This document shows, piece by piece, positions 37,901-43,900 of a DNA stretch of 64,000 bases. A program made the position numbers. The stretch covers positions 47,664-111,663 of the forward strand of contig CAXTYC010000017.1 of assembly GCA_964248365.1 (NCBI GenBank), read 5' to 3'. The number at the start of each line of letters is the position of its first letter. Position 1 is the stretch's first letter. Origin of the DNA: an uncultured Chroococcidiopsis sp. Lineage in GTDB: Bacteria; Cyanobacteriota; Cyanobacteriia; Cyanobacteriales; Chroococcidiopsidaceae.

Positions 37901-40900
37901 CCTCGTCACCCCTCACCCCTCACCCTTGACTGGTTTACAAATCCTAGTTGTAGATGACGAAGCTGATACCCGCGACTTTATTGCGAAAGTGCTGGTGAAG
38001 GAAGGAGCCATAGTGATGGCGGTAGCATCAGCGGCGGAAGCTCTAGATGTACTGGCATTGCAGCCAGATGTTTTAGTAAGTGATATTGCTATGCCCGAAG
38101 AGGACGGTTATTCTTTGATTCAAAAGGTCAGAGCAATAGAAGCAAATAAAAAGCAGCGATTACCAGCCGTAGCACTGACAGCACATCCCAACAGTGAAGA
38201 TCGGATCAACGCTCTTTGTGCAGGCTTTCAGACTCACGTAGCTAAGCCAGTCGATCCGGCAGAATTAGTAGTAGTAATAGCAAACTTGAAAAATTATCAA
38301 TGCTAAATTGGTAGTTGGTGAAAGGGGAAAGGGAAAAGGGAAAAGGAGTCAGTAGTCAGTAGTCAGTAGTTAGTAGTCACAATTCAGAAGAGTTAATTCT
38401 TCATCTCCCCTGAACCCACTCTCCCACTCTCTCCCTCTCCCCATCTTCCTCTAGCCCCTAGCCCCTTCTTCAGCCACTTCTGCTTGCAAAAAATCAATAA
38501 ACTGTCGTGCACTCCGCCCAGAGCGACCGTTGTGACGAGTTGCCCACTGTAGGGCGCGCGCCTCTAGATCTTCTTGATTTAGGGTAATTCCGGCTTGGGC
38601 TGCTAGATGGTGGACAATTTGGAGATAAGTGTTTTGATTAGCTGGTTCAAACGTCAAAGTTAGACCAAAGCGATCGCTAAATGATAGTTTTTCTTGCACT
38701 GTATCCCAAGCGTGGATTTCTTCATTATTACTCGGACGAGGGCGATCGCCAAAAAACTCCCGAATCAGGTGGCGACGATTAGAAGTAGCATAGACAACTA
38801 CATTCTGTGGTCGTGCGGTTAAATTACCTTCTAAAACAACTTTCAAAGCTTTAAAAGCATCATCATCTTCTTCAAAAGAAAGATCATCGACGAAAATAAT
38901 AAATTTCGGCGGCAAACCCCGTAGTTGTTCCACAATGGCTGGTAAATCTCTCAAATCAGATTTTGCAACTTCAATTATGCGAAGATTGCGACTACCATAT
39001 TCATTCAATAACCCTTTTACCAAAGAAGATTTACCAGAACCACGACTACCGTACAACAATACGTGCAACGCCCGATAACCTGCTAGTAAAAACTCTGTAT
39101 TCTTTAGTAAAGCATCTCGCTGATACTCATAGCCCACCAGTTGATTTATCCCGACTGAATCAGGGTAGGGAATTCCGATTAATTGCCCCGACTGCCAACG
39201 TAAAGCTTTATACCGAGCAAATATGCCAGTACCTTCTTTGCGGTAATAAGCTGCTAGTTTTTCCACATCCGCCCAATTTTCTCCAAGGGGCGTTTCACGA
39301 ATTGCGCTTGAGTGCATAGTTAGGGCAACGGGTGCAACATTCAACTTTGCCACACCTTGCACCCACTGGCACAGTTGTTCACTATCACACTGATAAAGAT
39401 TGTACAAAGCTTGCAAATCTTGCTTCGCAGCTGCTACCACTTGCGGTAATTTCGCCAAGTCTGTCTGCTGAACTTGACGAGTAAAAGGATTATCATCAGT
39501 GAGAATTTGGCTAATTAGATACTCTTGCCAAGTTTGATTTCTAGCAGCTAAAGCTCTGAAGTATTTGCCATAGGCTTTAATACAACCGAGCCAGTCGTCA
39601 CTATTACATAAAGCTTGTAATAGGTTGAGGAAAGCTTGCCCAACTTCATCCTCAAGTACAGATTGATACAGCAACAAGGAAGCTGCTTGAGTTTGGAGAA
39701 ATTGAATTGAGGCGATCGCTTGACTATCCATCGATATTAATATTTAAGCGTTGCACAATAAGGTAATGATTGTCCTTGTAACTTCCTTCAGATGCTAAAT
39801 ATCCTTTGTTTTTCTTAGCGACAAGCACGTCTTTGCGTGAAACTTGCCAAGCTGATGAACGTAGCAAGACGGATTTTTCACTTTAGCTAATACTACCAAC
39901 CCACGACAATCATCCAAAGACTAATTCCCAACACTAGGGTAGATAAATGTTGTGGTAAAAGCGATCGCATCGGTTGACGGGCGATTTTCCCAGTTAATAT
40001 CACCGTCAACAGAACTGAAAAAATCAGCGTTGTTCCTTGCAAAAAAGCCGTGACAGCAGGATGAGCCACCAAAACAGGCATTCCCTCACCGCCCAAGCCA
40101 AATGTTGCCAAACTCACAGGCAGAATACGTCCTGCTTCCCCCAACCCCAAACGCAGATAGTAAGCCAAATTTCCACCCCATACTAGGGGTAAGTAACCAT
40201 AGGCAAGTTCCACAAATGGTTTAGGTTTGGGCATTGGGAATGCTGATTTTGGCTTGTCCCCAGGCGATCGCTTGGGAATGTAATTGATTAACCAATGATA
40301 AAGCTGCATCAAACCATATACCAGCAGAGCAACACTAGCTGGAATCATCAAAGCTAGTAGTGATAATCCCAAGTGAGGCAAAAACTGTGTTAAATCTATA
40401 TTCCAACCCAGACTTGCCTGTATTTCTGGTAAGCGATGCAGAAACACTCCACCAAACAGCAAAAACAACAAAGCTACTTCATAACTGCGGGGGACATGGG
40501 TAGTCCACAACTCAATTCCAGGGGGACGTAAATTCACCTCTACAGAACGATGGGGACAAGCTTTGAGACAAGTCATGCACAAAACACAATCTCGGTTATC
40601 TTCGAGTTGTGCTGGATGAGAATACAACGGACAGCCCCCTGTTTCCATTCCCTCACCTTTTTGGGGACCACCTTTATAACACTGATAAGTAGTGCATTCT
40701 GCCGAACAAGTACCCTGCTGCGCTCGTAGCTCAGTCATTGATAATTTGGCAAATAAACCATTCATCCCCCCAATGGGACACAAATAGCGACACCAAAACC
40801 GCCGCTCAAAAATCGCAGAGAAAATCATAGCCCCAGCGGTGATTAAGAGCAGTAAACAAGAAGAAAGGTAAGCTGTATCTTCTAGATGCCAAAGTTCTTC

Positions 40901-43900
40901 CCACAAGAAAATTAGGGTAAATAACCCAAACAAAAACCATCCTCCCCATTTTTCCGCTGACTCTCGTGGCCAACGCTTCAACTGCCGAGGAAAAAGCCAT
41001 AGGGATAGCTTTTGCGTGACTTCTCCGTAAATCATGAATGGACATACGGCACACCACACTCGCCCCACAAACGGAAAACCCAGCAATACCAAAGGCCACC
41101 ACCAAGCCCAAAACATATTTAAGGCGAAATTCTCACTGCGATGCTGAGGACCTACAAATAAGATTGCTACAACGATCGCAAAAAACCACAAGGTAAAGCC
41201 GTAGTTGATTCGGTCTGGCCACCAAGGACTACGTAGAAACCGTCGTAGACCAGGATAAAGATTTAACAAATTGACGCGAAATTGTTTTTTCTTCGTCTGG
41301 GCTGACCAAAAGATTTCTTCGGTTAACTCAAGATTGCCCGCTGACTGGACAATTGCTCTTTCTACCAGGCTTTGTAATTCTTGAAAGTTGCCAGGGAAAT
41401 CGTAGGATTGTAAGCGGCGCAGAGCTTCTGGTGTGATTGTAGGTTTAGCAATACTTCTACTGCGCGTATAAAGACTGATGTAGTATTCGACTAAAGCTTT
41501 GAGATCAGCTTTACGCACTCTTAGAGGAGGCACTTTAATCGTATGACCGACACAACGCGCGATCGCAGGTTGTGTTTTTTCAGCAATCATCAAAATACGC
41601 GCTCTACTAGTACGCGGTTGTACTGACTCATCTTCCGCCCGACTAACTGGGGTGTAAGTACCCGTTTGTAACAACTGAGCTATTTTAGGTACTAATTCCG
41701 AGGGCAATTCTTGGATATTATTCAGAATTAAAGTACCTTCACCCAGCCATTCGATTAATCCTGGTTTTCCATTAGCACGACCAAATAGATCTGCACCGCT
41801 CGTTTGCAGAAGACCACAGTTGACTTTAATTATCGGTTCTCGTCGTTGGGAAGAACCAAAGTGGATCAGGCTAGCTATATTGTCTTTCTCTAGTCCTGGT
41901 TCGCCAAAAATTAGAACTGACTTGCGATCGCTAGCGGCTTCTCTGATTTCCTGACGCAGACGCACAGCATAGCGACTTGTCCCGACAACGCCGCGTTTTA
42001 CCTTAGTTACTAGATAAGGACGTAAGGCGATCGCTCGCTCTTGCTCATAGGTAAGTGCAGAGGTTAGCTGACTTAATTCTTGCGCTAATTGGCGGGAGAC
42101 AACCTCAAGAATTTCTGGGTATTGAGCCACTATCTCTCGGAAAGAAGCAGCCCGAACAACCCACAGGTGACACTCAGATAAAGTGGTAATTGTTCTTTGG
42201 GCTGGCTGATCTAATAGCAACTCCTGTAGGTTAATGACTGCTCCAGGGAGTAGACTAGTCGCTCCAATTGAGTTTGTTTGACTGGTGCGAACGCTTTCCA
42301 GATGACCTTGTTTGAGAATGTATAGTGCATCTGGGGGAGTGTCTTCTAAAACTAGGCGCACCTGTGCTGGTACAATTTGCTCTTCTATTACCCTTGCGAT
42401 CGCATTTAATACCTCTGGCGACAAGACTGCTAGAGCCGTTCGCTCTTGTAGCCATATCACTAAGTCTGGAGATATCATAGTTACTTTGCCGCTTGCAATA
42501 CTTCCTATTTTAGATTTATTGCTTCACCCTGCTAAACAATCTAAATACCCCAAGCCCCGCTGGCGTTGATCGATAGCGCCAATTTATACTTTTGATTGGC
42601 GCTTTCCTAGACTGTTAGCTGCAAGTTCTAAACCGAGTGCTATGAGTATGGCGGATCTTCCCAATCTCTGGGTTCCTTTGACACTTCTTGGTTTAATTGT
42701 AATTGCTGCTATTTTTTTCAGCCGCAGCCGCTAATATAATTCGGAAGACCCACGACAGAAGTCAGTAGTCAGAATAGTTAATTCTTCATCTTGTCCATCT
42801 CCCCCTCTCCCCTTTTGCCCCTTTTGCCCCTCGTCCCTAATAAAGCCGATCTAAGACATATTCAGTCATGTTAATCAAGGCTTGTCGAGATTCGGAGGGT
42901 GGTAGATCATTTAAATGCTCAACTGCTTTATTGGCATGATAAGCAGCTAATTCCCGCGATCGCTTGATGCCTTGACTATCTAAAATTAGAGCGATCGCTT
43001 TGTCTAAATCCCCTGACTGCTCAAACCTCCGTTCAATCAAGGTTTCTAAGTATGGTTTTTCTTCTAGGGCAAATAAAGCCGGAGCAGTCAGATTACCACT
43101 TTTAAGATCCGATCCTGCTGGCTTACCCAAAGTTTCTGTCGAACCAGTAAAATCCAAAATGTCATCTACAATTTGGAACGCTAAACCCCAATGACGACCA
43201 TAGCCGTGTAGATGCTCCGCTGTTTCTTGAGAAACTCCGCTGAGTAAACCAGCAGCTTTGGAACTGTTAGCGATCAAAGAAGCCGTTTTGTAATAGCTCT
43301 TGTCTAAGTAAGTTTCTAATGTGATGGAGGTATCAAAACGAGTTACTCCCTGCTGAATCTCACCTGCTGCAAAATTCATAATTACTTCTGAGAGTAATTT
43401 TACTACCTCTAGGTTGTCCAGGTTAGCTAAATGCCAGGAAGCTTGGGCAAACAGGAAATCCCCAGCCAATATAGCTACGCGATTATCAAACAAACTATGA
43501 ACGGTGGGAACTCCACGCCGCATGGGCGCTTCATCTACCACATCGTCATGTACTAAACTTGCCGTGTGAATCATTTCTGTAATTTCGGCTAACCTGCGGT
43601 GACGGGGGGTAATGTCTTCATCCAACATTGTCGCCCGTGACATCAGCAAGACAATTGCTGGTCGCACCCGCTTTCCTCCAGCTCCGAACAGGTATTCTGC
43701 CGCTGCAAACAGGATGGGATGACGTGTACCTATTAACTCTATTAAGTTCTCTGACAGCAAACGCAGGTCTGCTTCAACTGGAGAAAAGAGGGAAGTCGCT
43801 GAGGTCATGAATAACTGACTCTATATTTGTTTACGAAATTTTACATATTCTGTACTCATTTTAAGCGCGATCGCGGCAAGCTAGGGATTTCATTTTTTGC

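Follow-up and report, generated by a model that had tools for sequence, protein, structure and literature searches.

Within the window, a stretch of 64,000 nucleotides from an uncultured Chroococcidiopsis sp. whose genome is 99.97% complete in 102 contigs, the minus strand encodes at 39893..42478 a membrane protein of 861 aa, P0001 below. Its open reading frame, translation and Pfam matches bear out the make-up given in the genome-wide survey's note (cNMP-binding domain, AAA+ core of the enhancer-binding-protein [EBP] type, lid and Fer4_5), and the domains follow one another as a cNMP-binding fold, the EBP-type AAA+ core with its lid, a NapH-like module and five membrane helices. All 80 cyanobacterial loci that were kept have a full-length orthologue, at 62–91% identity, and the AF2 model of the whole protein is confident (mean pLDDT 94, pTM 0.81). 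The gene is usually annotated as a sigma-54 transcription regulator. Reading the upstream region, we also spotted an unannotated 28-codon ORF on the plus strand (42648..42734), which would encode a one-helix membrane peptide. It is divergent from the P0001 gene, with 170 bp between both start codons, and from its position the interval 42479..42647 (no strand) would be a shared control region; within it falls a single sigma-70-like site (42535-42507, minus strand), such sites being no more numerous than chance predicts (4 found vs. 4.7 expected).

The AAA+ core (residues 165-289, 41612..41986, minus strand) matches Sigma54_activat (PF00158) at E 1.2e-15 over profile positions 2-136 of 168, the 135 positions already noted by the survey, and the lid (residues 320-383, 41330..41521, minus strand) matches AAA_lid_14 (PF25601) at E 1e-12. 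Since other AAA+ proteins make PF00158 ring in all 14 of the control genomes, the raw Sigma54_activat counts with which the survey had tallied the family are inflated, and AAA_lid_14 and Fer4_5, each matched in the host genome by this gene alone, are the specific markers instead. By Foldseek, the core superposes on PspF, NtrC1 and FleQ with a TM score of ~0.8 over ~240 residues (rmsd 2.4–3 Å); all EBP equivalogs in NCBIfam score far below their cut-offs, the best being NorR with 100 bits vs. 476. When the core is aligned to the PDB sequences of the solved EBPs VpsR, NifA and NtrC, the L1/GAFTGA stretch is deleted, and a regex search of our 150-row alignment (50 cyanobacterial, 29 intermediate and 71 distant rows) retrieves a GAFTGA-like word in 0/50 cyanobacterial and 0/29 intermediate rows. 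Neither Sigma54_DBD nor Sigma54_CBD has a match in the host genome, each profile ringing in 4 of 14 control genomes, and Pfam lists no HTH or other DNA-binding family in P0001. A passage of the 2011 BMC Genomics paper to which the survey had referred indeed states that sigma-54 and its EBPs are absent from all cyanobacteria then sequenced (PMC3162934). The proposal that an EBP-type AAA+ domain is here used outside sigma-54 transcription, tethered to a membrane module, is thus upheld.

The survey had gone further and read P0001 as an AAA+ ATPase motor gated by cAMP/cGMP, with a membrane polyferredoxin as either its target or its gate. All three modules do lie in one chain according to Pfam, the Walker A Lys is present in 50/50 cyanobacterial rows and, as said, the core superposes on active EBPs. 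However, the Walker B Asp-Glu pair is Asn-Asn in 50/50 cyanobacterial orthologues, sensor I is Glu/Lys, the first Arg of the R-finger stretch is absent, and sensor II is Gln in P0001 (R24, K21, A2, Q1 and E1 in the 50 cyanobacterial rows). Judging from its motifs, with Walker B lost throughout and the L1 loop deleted, the ATPase of the head is to be regarded as dead. Residual nucleotide-dependent behavior may nonetheless remain, given the universal Walker A Lys, a basic sensor II in 45/50 rows and the second R-finger residue, which is Arg in only 35/50. The gating half of the proposal meets a comparable difficulty. The cyclic-nucleotide-binding fold itself (residues 37-120, 42119..42370, minus strand) is well supported by Pfam (PF00027, E 1.5e-11, 44.5 bits vs. 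a cut-off of 27.5), by PDB matches over residues 18-131 and alignments to PKA-R and MlotiK1, and by AF2, which models a beta-barrel leading into a long helix; its phosphate-binding cassette, though, is degenerate, the canonical Gly, Glu and Arg being replaced by His or Asn, by Leu, and by Ala, Thr or Val, respectively, in 50/50 cyanobacterial rows. With the register shifted by two residues, P0001 does present Glu and Arg-Thr at canonical cassette spacing, but across the cyanobacterial rows that Arg occurs in only 25/50 and the Glu in 42/50, and the chlorophycean orthologues, Chlamydomonas reinhardtii included, have no cNMP domain by Pfam. More intact versions do exist in the 71 distant relatives, where the cassette Gly is kept in 64, the Glu in 57 and the Arg in 30, and where the P-loop GxxGxGK has its Gly in 45; their Walker B Glu position is N40, H13, D6, E4 and G4. 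Taken together, a cyclic-nucleotide-gated motor strikes us as highly improbable, and both "ATPase motor" and "cAMP/cGMP-gated" have to be dropped from a reading that, as a whole, is partly supported.

From an evolutionary perspective, the fusion is not special to a phylum devoid of sigma-54: full-length relatives that have degenerated less are most frequent in Thermodesulfobacteriota, and the family extends to green-algal nuclear genomes (C. reinhardtii CHLRE_12g512400v5, Klebsormidium). Of 401 sampled Cyanobacteriota genomes, 112 have the gene and the other 289 lack it. In the phylogeny, algae (SH-aLRT 99) and cyanobacteria (100) form sister clades, both standing apart from distant bacteria (100), and on this tree the gene has been passed down within the green lineage. 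Sigma54_activat scores fall from 163 bits in a distant member to 58 in P0001 and 39 in Chlamydomonas and disappear in Ostreococcus, whereas Fer4_5 and the lid are retained; these Pfam scores show the head decaying by degrees.

This decay bears on a second possibility, namely that P0001 is a membrane redox sensor, whose Fe-S or quinone-facing module would read the redox state of the membrane pool and whose pseudo-ATPase head would relay the signal by binding or releasing a soluble partner, a mode of action that would parallel the sigma-54-independent one of other EBP relatives lacking GAFTGA. Among solved structures, VpsR (7v2b) matches best by sequence; it likewise has no GAFTGA stretch, carries Asn-Asp at Walker B and is deposited under a title that names c-di-GMP binding; FleQ and NtrX are among the top matches too. 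The fold of the head and its P-loop Lys have been kept under selection, and the gene stands alone, with no enzyme partners among ORFs of at least 70 aa. Yet Pfam finds no output domain of known type in P0001, the gene neighborhoods offered no candidate partner, and the head decays stepwise and is partly lost in algae while the membrane module is invariant, the reverse of the pattern that a head doing the work would show. We consider such a sensor unlikely.

Most of the conservation lies in the membrane module, the invariant part of the protein. Its NapH-like core (residues 419-650, 40529..41224, minus strand), supported by TIGR02163, two Fer4_5 stretches (best 543-579), Cys conservation and AF2 helices, comprises four membrane helices, the second followed by CxxCP and the fourth by CxxxCP, and beyond them two four-Cys [4Fe-4S] motifs, where Pfam finds a weak Fer4 at 626-644. 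The 12 Cys of these four motifs are present in 50/50 cyanobacterial, 28–29/29 intermediate and 70–71/71 distant rows. Five further membrane helices (residues 665-860, 39899..40486, minus strand) are modeled by AF2 at 665-690, 699-733, 755-792, 807-833 and 837-860, and this extension has its own clade-specific residues, His661, Glu667, His681, His702, Glu781 and Trp855, conserved in 96–100% of the 50 cyanobacterial and 90–97% of the 29 intermediate rows vs. at most 4% of the 71 distant ones. In AF2, the membrane domain is compact and confidently modeled (pLDDT 95.6, pTM 0.93). By the predicted helix order, the two Cys-Pro motifs, the ferredoxin domain and the N-terminal soluble head all share one side of the membrane, and a cytoplasmic location of that side fits the Lys/Arg-rich loops seen in the sequence. 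Foldseek returns no solved structure resembling this domain at E ≤ 0.001, VIA-align reaches a best Z of 6.6 with generic helices only, and the PDB holds no sequence relative, so the fold offers no functional anchor.

The same cofactor motifs raise a third possibility, a metal reductase akin to CcoG/YccM, in which the cytoplasmic [4Fe-4S] pair and the Cys-Pro motifs would reduce Cu(II) or Fe(III) for metal pumps or chaperones serving photosynthetic metalloproteins. The clade-specific His/His/Glu could form a metal site. A link to copper runs through Synechocystis slr1529, the putative orthologue of the P0001 gene, and the tentative orthology weakens the argument. A gene list in PMC4182526 places slr1529 among the genes repressed by high copper. 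As for CcoG, PMC7558416 describes it as reducing Cu(II) in the membrane with the help of two [4Fe-4S] clusters and two Cu sites, and mentions that species lacking cbb3 oxidase have smaller homologues, YccM for example. Against this, TIGR02745, the model for CcoG, has no match anywhere in the host genome, this gene included, and is also missing from what the membrane half matches in NCBIfam at E ≤ 1, where NapH is nearer; in addition, 289 of 401 sampled genomes do without the gene, and no land plant appears among the best 120 matches of an algal query. A metal reductase of this type likewise seems unlikely to us.

Whether the P0001 gene has a genetic companion was answered in the negative by the survey, and this holds for ORFs of at least 70 aa in cyanobacteria, as in distant relatives, where no larger conserved neighbor names a pathway; it fails for the 28-aa ORF just upstream. 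That a conserved one-helix ORF of 26-32 aa is divergent from the P0001 gene is, to this extent, new here. The ORF is intact in 32 related loci and present in 34 of 80, upstream and divergent in 33 of those, and 36 of its 59 copies lie within 400 bp upstream of the P0001 gene in divergent orientation, the two start codons being, in relatives, typically 60–100 bp, and commonly ~70–76 bp, apart. A genome with two copies of the P0001 gene has one small ORF for each, 62 and 64 bp upstream. Across genomes, it is found in 58/401, all 58 carrying the P0001 gene, and in 0/289 without that gene (within a single family, in 22/27 genomes with it and 0/19 without), counts that are taken over related genomes and so overstate independence. 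Pairwise differences by codon position (2490/673/5410) show a third-position bias, and differing codon pairs are synonymous in 4110 cases vs. 2106 non-synonymous; from this pattern, the ORF is under purifying selection and looks translated. It belongs to no Pfam or NCBIfam family, and the algal proteins showed neither a fused copy of it nor a separate one. By linkage and co-occurrence, the small ORF behaves as a partner of the P0001 gene, but its presence in only 58 of 112 genomes and 34 of 80 loci, and not with algal proteins, means that it is not an indispensable subunit everywhere.

On this basis, we favor, with a probability of about one half, a two-gene membrane module for electron transfer or redox chemistry that bears a fossil regulatory head and is neither a transcription factor nor an ATP-driven motor. 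The C-terminal half, a NapH-type polyferredoxin, would be the working part: as the motifs and the predicted model suggest, CxxCP and CxxxCP would lie at the cytoplasmic face of the membrane and two [4Fe-4S] clusters would be held in the cytoplasm, while in cyanobacteria and green algae the five added helices would contribute conserved His/Glu, several of them near the outer (periplasm/lumen) face. The module could then carry electrons from a donor, either cytoplasmic or quinol, to an acceptor located in the membrane or on its other side, and the 28-aa peptide may be a small subunit or obligatory partner of P0001. The N-terminal cNMP fold and AAA+ core would be evolutionary fossils of a once ligand-regulated head from which ATP hydrolysis, the loop that contacts sigma-54 and the canonical cNMP pocket are gone. 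As it keeps its folds and the P-loop Lys, nucleotide binding is still possible, and the head most likely serves as a structural, docking or allosteric platform.

Among known systems, NapH/MauN, the family that the membrane half matches best, share with P0001 the same order of elements over profile positions 76-253 of the 255 in TIGR02163 (residues 470-648, E ~1e-12). P0001 nevertheless scores 49.5 bits vs. a cut-off of 213, its first motif is CxxCP rather than CxxxCP, and it adds five C-terminal helices and ~400 aa of N-terminal soluble domains. NapH has a role with quinol and a membrane topology of its own; a NapG-type partner reaching the cut-off is lacking in the host genome. CcoG/YccM resemble P0001 in being membrane proteins of the Fer4_5 kind that have further Cys-based sites besides two [4Fe-4S] clusters, as far as the passages in PMC7558416 describe them, but P0001 has no match to the CcoG model, no C-terminal Ig-like domain by Pfam and no ccoHIS context around its gene. 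With PKA regulatory subunits and the MlotiK1 channel, it shares the cNMP fold (above the Pfam cut-off, PDB E 4e-7 to 1e-4) but not, in the canonical register, the cassette residues that hold ribose and phosphate. Finally, P0001 differs from EBPs in having no DNA-binding domain, receiver or GAF input, in its membrane anchor, in its Asn-Asn Walker B and in a host genome without sigma-54, whereas its AAA+ core and lid align with those of the GAFTGA-less VpsR (7v2b), NtrX (5m7n) and FleQ (5exp) at E 5e-21 to 1e-19, VpsR coming close also in its shortened L1 region and in the Asn-Asp at its Walker B.

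The gene under study is a single ORF of 861 aa (39893–42478, minus strand) by ORF call and translation, on whose product Pfam places a cNMP_binding domain (PF00027, residues 37–120, with a score of 44.5 bits that exceeds the cut-off of 27.5), a Sigma54_activat domain (PF00158, residues 165–289, 58 bits, profile positions 2–136 of 168), an AAA_lid_14 (PF25601, residues 320–383, 48 bits), two stretches of Fer4_5 in the membrane half, and a weak Fer4 (residues 626–644). Pfam finds no DNA-binding or helix-turn-helix family in the protein, and the lid, which ends at residue 383, leads directly into the first membrane helix at residue 419, so that the layout without a DNA-binding domain described in the genome-wide survey's note is confirmed. 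In NCBIfam, the middle of the protein matches enhancer-binding-protein (EBP) models, each far below its cut-off, and residues 470–648 are placed with NapH/MauN, a family of ferredoxin-type membrane proteins. Profile searches of the genome (completeness 99.97%) identify this gene as the sole site of AAA_lid_14 and likewise of Fer4_5, and return 0 matches for both Sigma54_DBD and Sigma54_CBD, with control matches in 4 of 14 genomes; the reported lack of sigma-54 is thus upheld. The survey also quoted its source correctly, as a passage of the BMC Genomics 2011 paper (PMC3162934) does state that sigma-54 and its activators were missing from all 29 cyanobacteria sequenced by then.

The AAA+ core and lid have an EBP-type fold (PF00158 and PF25601; Foldseek TM about 0.8), and Foldseek overlays the AF2 model on PspF, NtrC1, and FleQ with a TM of about 0.8 and an rmsd of 2.4–3 Å. 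When the protein is aligned with the solved EBPs VpsR, NifA, and NtrC, its P-loop shows a Glu in place of the EBP Gly before the Lys, the Lys itself being retained, its Walker B motif reads Asn-Asn where EBPs have Asp-Glu, its sensor II is Gln rather than Arg, and the GAFTGA stretch, the loop that contacts sigma-54, is deleted. To place these changes, we used a protein alignment of 150 rows grouped by identity to the query into 50 cyanobacterial orthologues (at least 60%), 29 intermediate rows (algae, a cyanobacterial paralogue, and unnamed rows), and 71 distant rows. Walker B is Asn-Asn in all 50 cyanobacterial rows, and the position of its Glu is held by Asn in 26 of the 29 intermediate rows and by N40, H13, D6, E4, and G4 in the 71 distant rows, a group whose counts throughout include the stored protein P0264. 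The Walker A Lys is retained in 50/50, 27/29, and 54/71 rows, respectively. Among the cyanobacterial rows, sensor I is Glu/Lys, the Arg of the first R-finger position is replaced by Q, L, or I in every row, the second is Arg in 35/50 (the 861-aa protein included), and sensor II is R or K in 45/50, which makes the Gln of our protein exceptional. GAFTGA-like words occur in 0/50 cyanobacterial and 0/29 intermediate rows; together with the deletion seen against NifA and NtrC, this bears out the absence of the motif noted by the survey. One distant row, P0264, carries a true GAFTGA; with 942 aa, three Sigma54_activat stretches, two lids, and neither Fer4_5 nor a membrane domain, it was rejected as a family member, having been drawn into the distant set through AAA+ similarity alone. 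A complex prediction with three copies of the AAA+ domain (residues 150–395) scored 0.00 ("no answer") and carries no weight either way. Taken together, the motif losses, the retained Lys, and the superposition on EBPs suggest that the predicted fold is maintained, that nucleotide binding by the AAA+ domain is conceivable, and that ATP hydrolysis is very unlikely. The survey's proposal of a motor or ATPase is not supported, given a Walker B of Asn-Asn in 50/50 cyanobacterial rows.

The second part of that proposal, gating by cAMP or cGMP, fares no better. In the canonical register, fixed by aligning the protein with PKA regulatory subunits and MlotiK1 in HMMER and by the 150-row alignment, the Gly/Glu/Arg of the nucleotide-binding cassette are replaced in 50/50 cyanobacterial rows by His or Asn, by Leu, and by Ala, Thr, or Val, respectively, when the distant rows retain the Gly in 64/71, the Glu in 57/71, and the Arg in 30/71. 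When the register is shifted by two, the 861-aa protein does have the canonical cassette spacing, with a Glu and an Arg-Thr; this shifted Glu is present in 42/50 and the shifted Arg in 25/50 of the cyanobacterial orthologues, our protein having both, so that this single protein could conceivably still bind a cNMP. Pfam detects no cNMP domain in chlorophycean orthologues. Cassette loss, the patchy shifted Arg, and the chlorophycean absence leave the gating claim unsupported, and the domain of the 861-aa protein is, to all appearances, degenerate.

Searched at E ≤ 1e-30, the big gene is found in 112 of 401 sampled Cyanobacteriota genomes; within the window's order and class, most families have it, but among the 217 genomes of 12 further families only 1 does. 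Short forms that lack the cNMP domain occur. A second, paralogous clade of cyanobacterial proteins, about 40% identical and about 900 aa long, has the same architecture (the stored protein P0130 and, in sampled genomes, G115:C65, G261:C32, and G038:C1:74359-76929); its Spirulina major member has a canonical GxxGxGKT P-loop, with a Walker B that still lacks Asp-Glu. Full-length homologues with 42–51% identity lie on megabase nuclear contigs of green algae, among them Trebouxia, Picocystis, Edaphochlamys, Ostreococcus, Volvox, Gonium, Chlamydomonas incerta, Chlorella, Coccomyxa, Haematococcus, and the streptophyte Klebsormidium, and the Chlamydomonas reinhardtii member is CHLRE_12g512400v5; no land plant is among the 120 best matches of an algal query. 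In a quick IQ-TREE phylogeny of 56 rows, 19 algal rows group together (SH-aLRT 99) as the sister of a group of 20 cyanobacterial orthologues (100), with Ostreococcus on a long branch; the Spirulina paralogue falls outside the group of orthologues and algae, and 14 distant rows are set apart from the algal and cyanobacterial ones (SH-aLRT 100). This topology would fit a gene that the algae inherited with the ancestor of the plastid. Among the distant clusters, Thermodesulfobacteriota are the commonest source, and the fusion is thus no adaptation to a lack of sigma-54.

It is the membrane half that is best conserved. Twelve Cys are invariant or nearly so across all three alignment groups, forming a CxxCP (C476/C479-P), a CxxxCP (C563/C567-P), and two four-Cys motifs (C591/595/600/616-P and C631/634/637/641-P). 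AF2 models the whole protein with a pLDDT of 94 and a pTM of 0.81, and residues 395–861 alone with 95.6 and 0.93; the models contain membrane helices 1 and 2 (419–442 and 451–471), a short helix (480–495), membrane helices 3 and 4 (505–529 and 536–556), a ferredoxin-like domain between the helices at 536–556 and 665–690, and five further helices (665–690, 699–733, 755–792, 807–833, and 837–860). From helix order and Lys/Arg-rich loops, we infer that both Cys-Pro motifs and both predicted clusters face the cytoplasm, as their counterparts do in NapH. His661, Glu667, His681, His702, Glu781, and Trp855 are conserved in 96–100% of cyanobacterial, 90–97% of intermediate, and at most 4% of distant rows. 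Given the modelled topology, several of these clade-specific residues would lie near the outer face, and the His and Glu among them could be a candidate metal or haem site. As far as sequence can tell, this half is the conserved business end of the protein.

No solved structure resembles the membrane domain: Foldseek against the PDB gave 0 matches at E ≤ 0.001, VIA-align wide peaked at Z 6.6, on generic helices, and phmmer against PDB sequences gave only ferredoxin-motif matches at E ≥ 0.1. As for a partner of the NapG/MauM type, the best match of the genome to TIGR00397 is an 88-aa frame on another contig, with 26.9 bits against a cut-off of 178.85. Two less likely readings compete with that of an electron-transfer module: the protein may be a redox sensor that acts through a partner, or a metal reductase resembling CcoG, an enzyme described in the review PMC7558416. 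The CcoG/FixG/RdxA model TIGR02745 matches nothing in the genome at E ≤ 0.001 and is absent from the matches of the membrane half at E ≤ 1.

A candidate partner of a different kind emerged from the gene's surroundings. The survey had reported no conserved neighbourhood, which holds for ORFs of at least 70 aa: none of the 16 window neighbours of that size recurs beside the big gene in more than 7 of 80 related loci, and de novo clustering of neighbours reaches at most 17/80 (generic kinases) and 13/80 (a 112-aa downstream ORF in Nostocales). Immediate neighbours in the window include a DUF815-family AAA ATPase gene (E 1e-95; 38451–39731, minus strand), 162 bp downstream on the target's strand; it lies beside the target in just 1/80 loci, and the pairing thus looks accidental. 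Upstream, a polyprenyl synthetase, an Asp/Glu racemase, and a cell-wall amidase with AMIN and Amidase_3 domains (42837–47724, minus strand) adjoin the target in 1–2 of 80 loci. Farther off, a pair of adjoining FHA-domain genes (33352–34446, plus strand), of which the first also encodes a double zinc ribbon, has as neighbours a coiled-coil ORF of 240 aa and a hybrid of PAS, His-kinase, and receiver domains (35766–38306). Among 40 metagenome loci of the distant clade with a full-length gene, 34 of them with more than 1 kb of flank, no neighbour names a pathway; the best recurring one is a 161-aa multi-helix membrane ORF directly downstream on the same strand in 5/40 loci, starting −10 to +89 bp from the stop of the big gene (for example, 10498–10983 of locus L135).

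Below this size, the claim fails. Because of its length floor of 70 aa, our neighbour analysis missed an ORF of 28 codons (42648–42734, plus strand) inside the 358-bp gap upstream of the big gene, which encodes one hydrophobic helix with a basic C-terminus and no Cys, and which tblastn and HMM searches find in 34/80 related loci. Of these 34 loci, 33 place it on the other strand and upstream of the big gene, 24 of them within 400 bp; 32 loci hold an intact ORF of 26–32 aa, with ATG and stop at conserved places. Pairwise over 19 core codons of 33 sequences, differences by codon position number 2490/673/5410, and differing codons are synonymous in 4110 cases against 2106 non-synonymous. A profile search finds the small ORF in 58 of the 401 genomes, every one of which belongs to the 112 with the big gene; the 289 genomes that lack the big gene yield none. 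In one family alone (f5), 22 of 27 genomes with the big gene contain it, as against 0 of 19 without. As relatedness keeps the genomes from being independent samples, the nominal Fisher p of 7e-39 for this co-occurrence overstates the case. The 59 copies divide into 36 that are divergent within 400 bp (often at 70–76 bp), 6 divergent at 1.5–20 kb, 5 that are remote but on the same contig, and 12 on other contigs. One genome, G091, has two copies of the big gene (C1:1234840-1237486 and C1:1897424-1900072, with 65% and 57% identity to the query), both of which have a divergent small ORF of their own, 62 and 64 bp upstream, which suggests joint duplication of the two genes. The peptide matches no Pfam or NCBIfam family; its HMM finds 0 further loci and 0 fused copies among 554 stored proteins, a 30-aa query of the ESM Atlas returns unnamed clusters only, at 0.84 or lower, and 42 loci without the peptide show no other recurrent hydrophobic divergent small ORF. 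The small ORF is, on this comparative evidence, a real gene linked to the big gene; escaping standard annotation, it offers a second handle for genetics and biochemistry. In the divergent control region, a promoter and terminator scan gave matches at chance level only; in Nostocales-type loci (L015, L019, L029, L032, L033, L039, L043, L038, and L011), a shared element, GGGATAATTCC, followed by a TATAC-like box, lies 30–45 nt upstream of the ATG of the big gene.

What best fits these observations is probably a NapH-kind membrane electron-transfer module, joined by a small partner peptide and retaining its regulatory head as a fossil. Ancestrally, the head would have been a cNMP- and nucleotide-binding regulator, as apparently preserved in the distant relatives, of which cyanobacteria and algae would retain only the scaffold. 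A bolder version, to which we grant roughly a one-in-five chance, is that oxygenic phototrophs possess a novel trans-membrane complex for electron transfer, made up of the big protein and its 28-aa partner. In this complex, electrons would leave the cytoplasmic [4Fe-4S] pair, pass through the clade-specific His/Glu helices with their putative haem or metal site, and reach the lumenal or periplasmic side, possibly reducing a metal or redox carrier for the photosynthetic apparatus, and the fossil EBP ring would act as a nucleotide-sensing or oligomerising platform. If true, this would be the first role for an EBP-derived domain in eukaryotes, that is, in green algae.

The family may have a representative in a model strain, as Synechocystis slr1529 ("ntrX", "nitrogen assimilation regulatory protein") is a candidate orthologue of the big gene. 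Synechocystis is not among the 120 best homologues of a Snowella orthologue, and the one pointer to slr1529 is the legacy name "nitrogen assimilation regulatory protein" that it has in common with the Volvox, Chlamydomonas, and Limnospira members. A further candidate may exist in Synechococcus elongatus, whose genome, used as a control, has matches to AAA_lid_14 and Fer4_5. Provided that slr1529 is the orthologue, three published observations would apply: its knock-out alters metabolite profiles at 72 h (PMC5318462), high copper represses it (PMC4182526), and it has a co-regulated antisense RNA (PMC3516471). In thousands of public records, members carry the name "sigma 54-interacting transcriptional regulator" or else "nitrogen assimilation regulatory protein," a labelling that is almost certainly wrong. 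Since the protein is conserved from cyanobacteria to the nuclear genomes of green algae, Chlamydomonas reinhardtii and Klebsormidium included, and since our literature search, which covered main texts, found no work on the family, on slr1529 function, or on Cre12.g512400, the family stands as a tractable, unstudied candidate component of photosynthetic membranes. It would also exemplify how an AAA+ motor and a second-messenger sensor decay to pseudo-domains when still joined to a conserved catalytic module.

Compared with known systems, the 861-aa protein resembles bacterial EBPs in the fold of its AAA+ core and lid, but differs from them in lacking the GAFTGA loop, the Asp-Glu of Walker B, a helix-turn-helix domain, and a sigma-54 in its genome. 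With respect to NapH, it reaches only 49.5 bits against the NapH/MauN model TIGR02163 (cut-off 213.05) and 31.8 bits against the NapH equivalog NF007013 (234), yet, as in that protein, its four membrane helices are combined with a pair of Cys-Pro motifs and a pair of four-Cys motifs, and the elements follow each other in NapH order.
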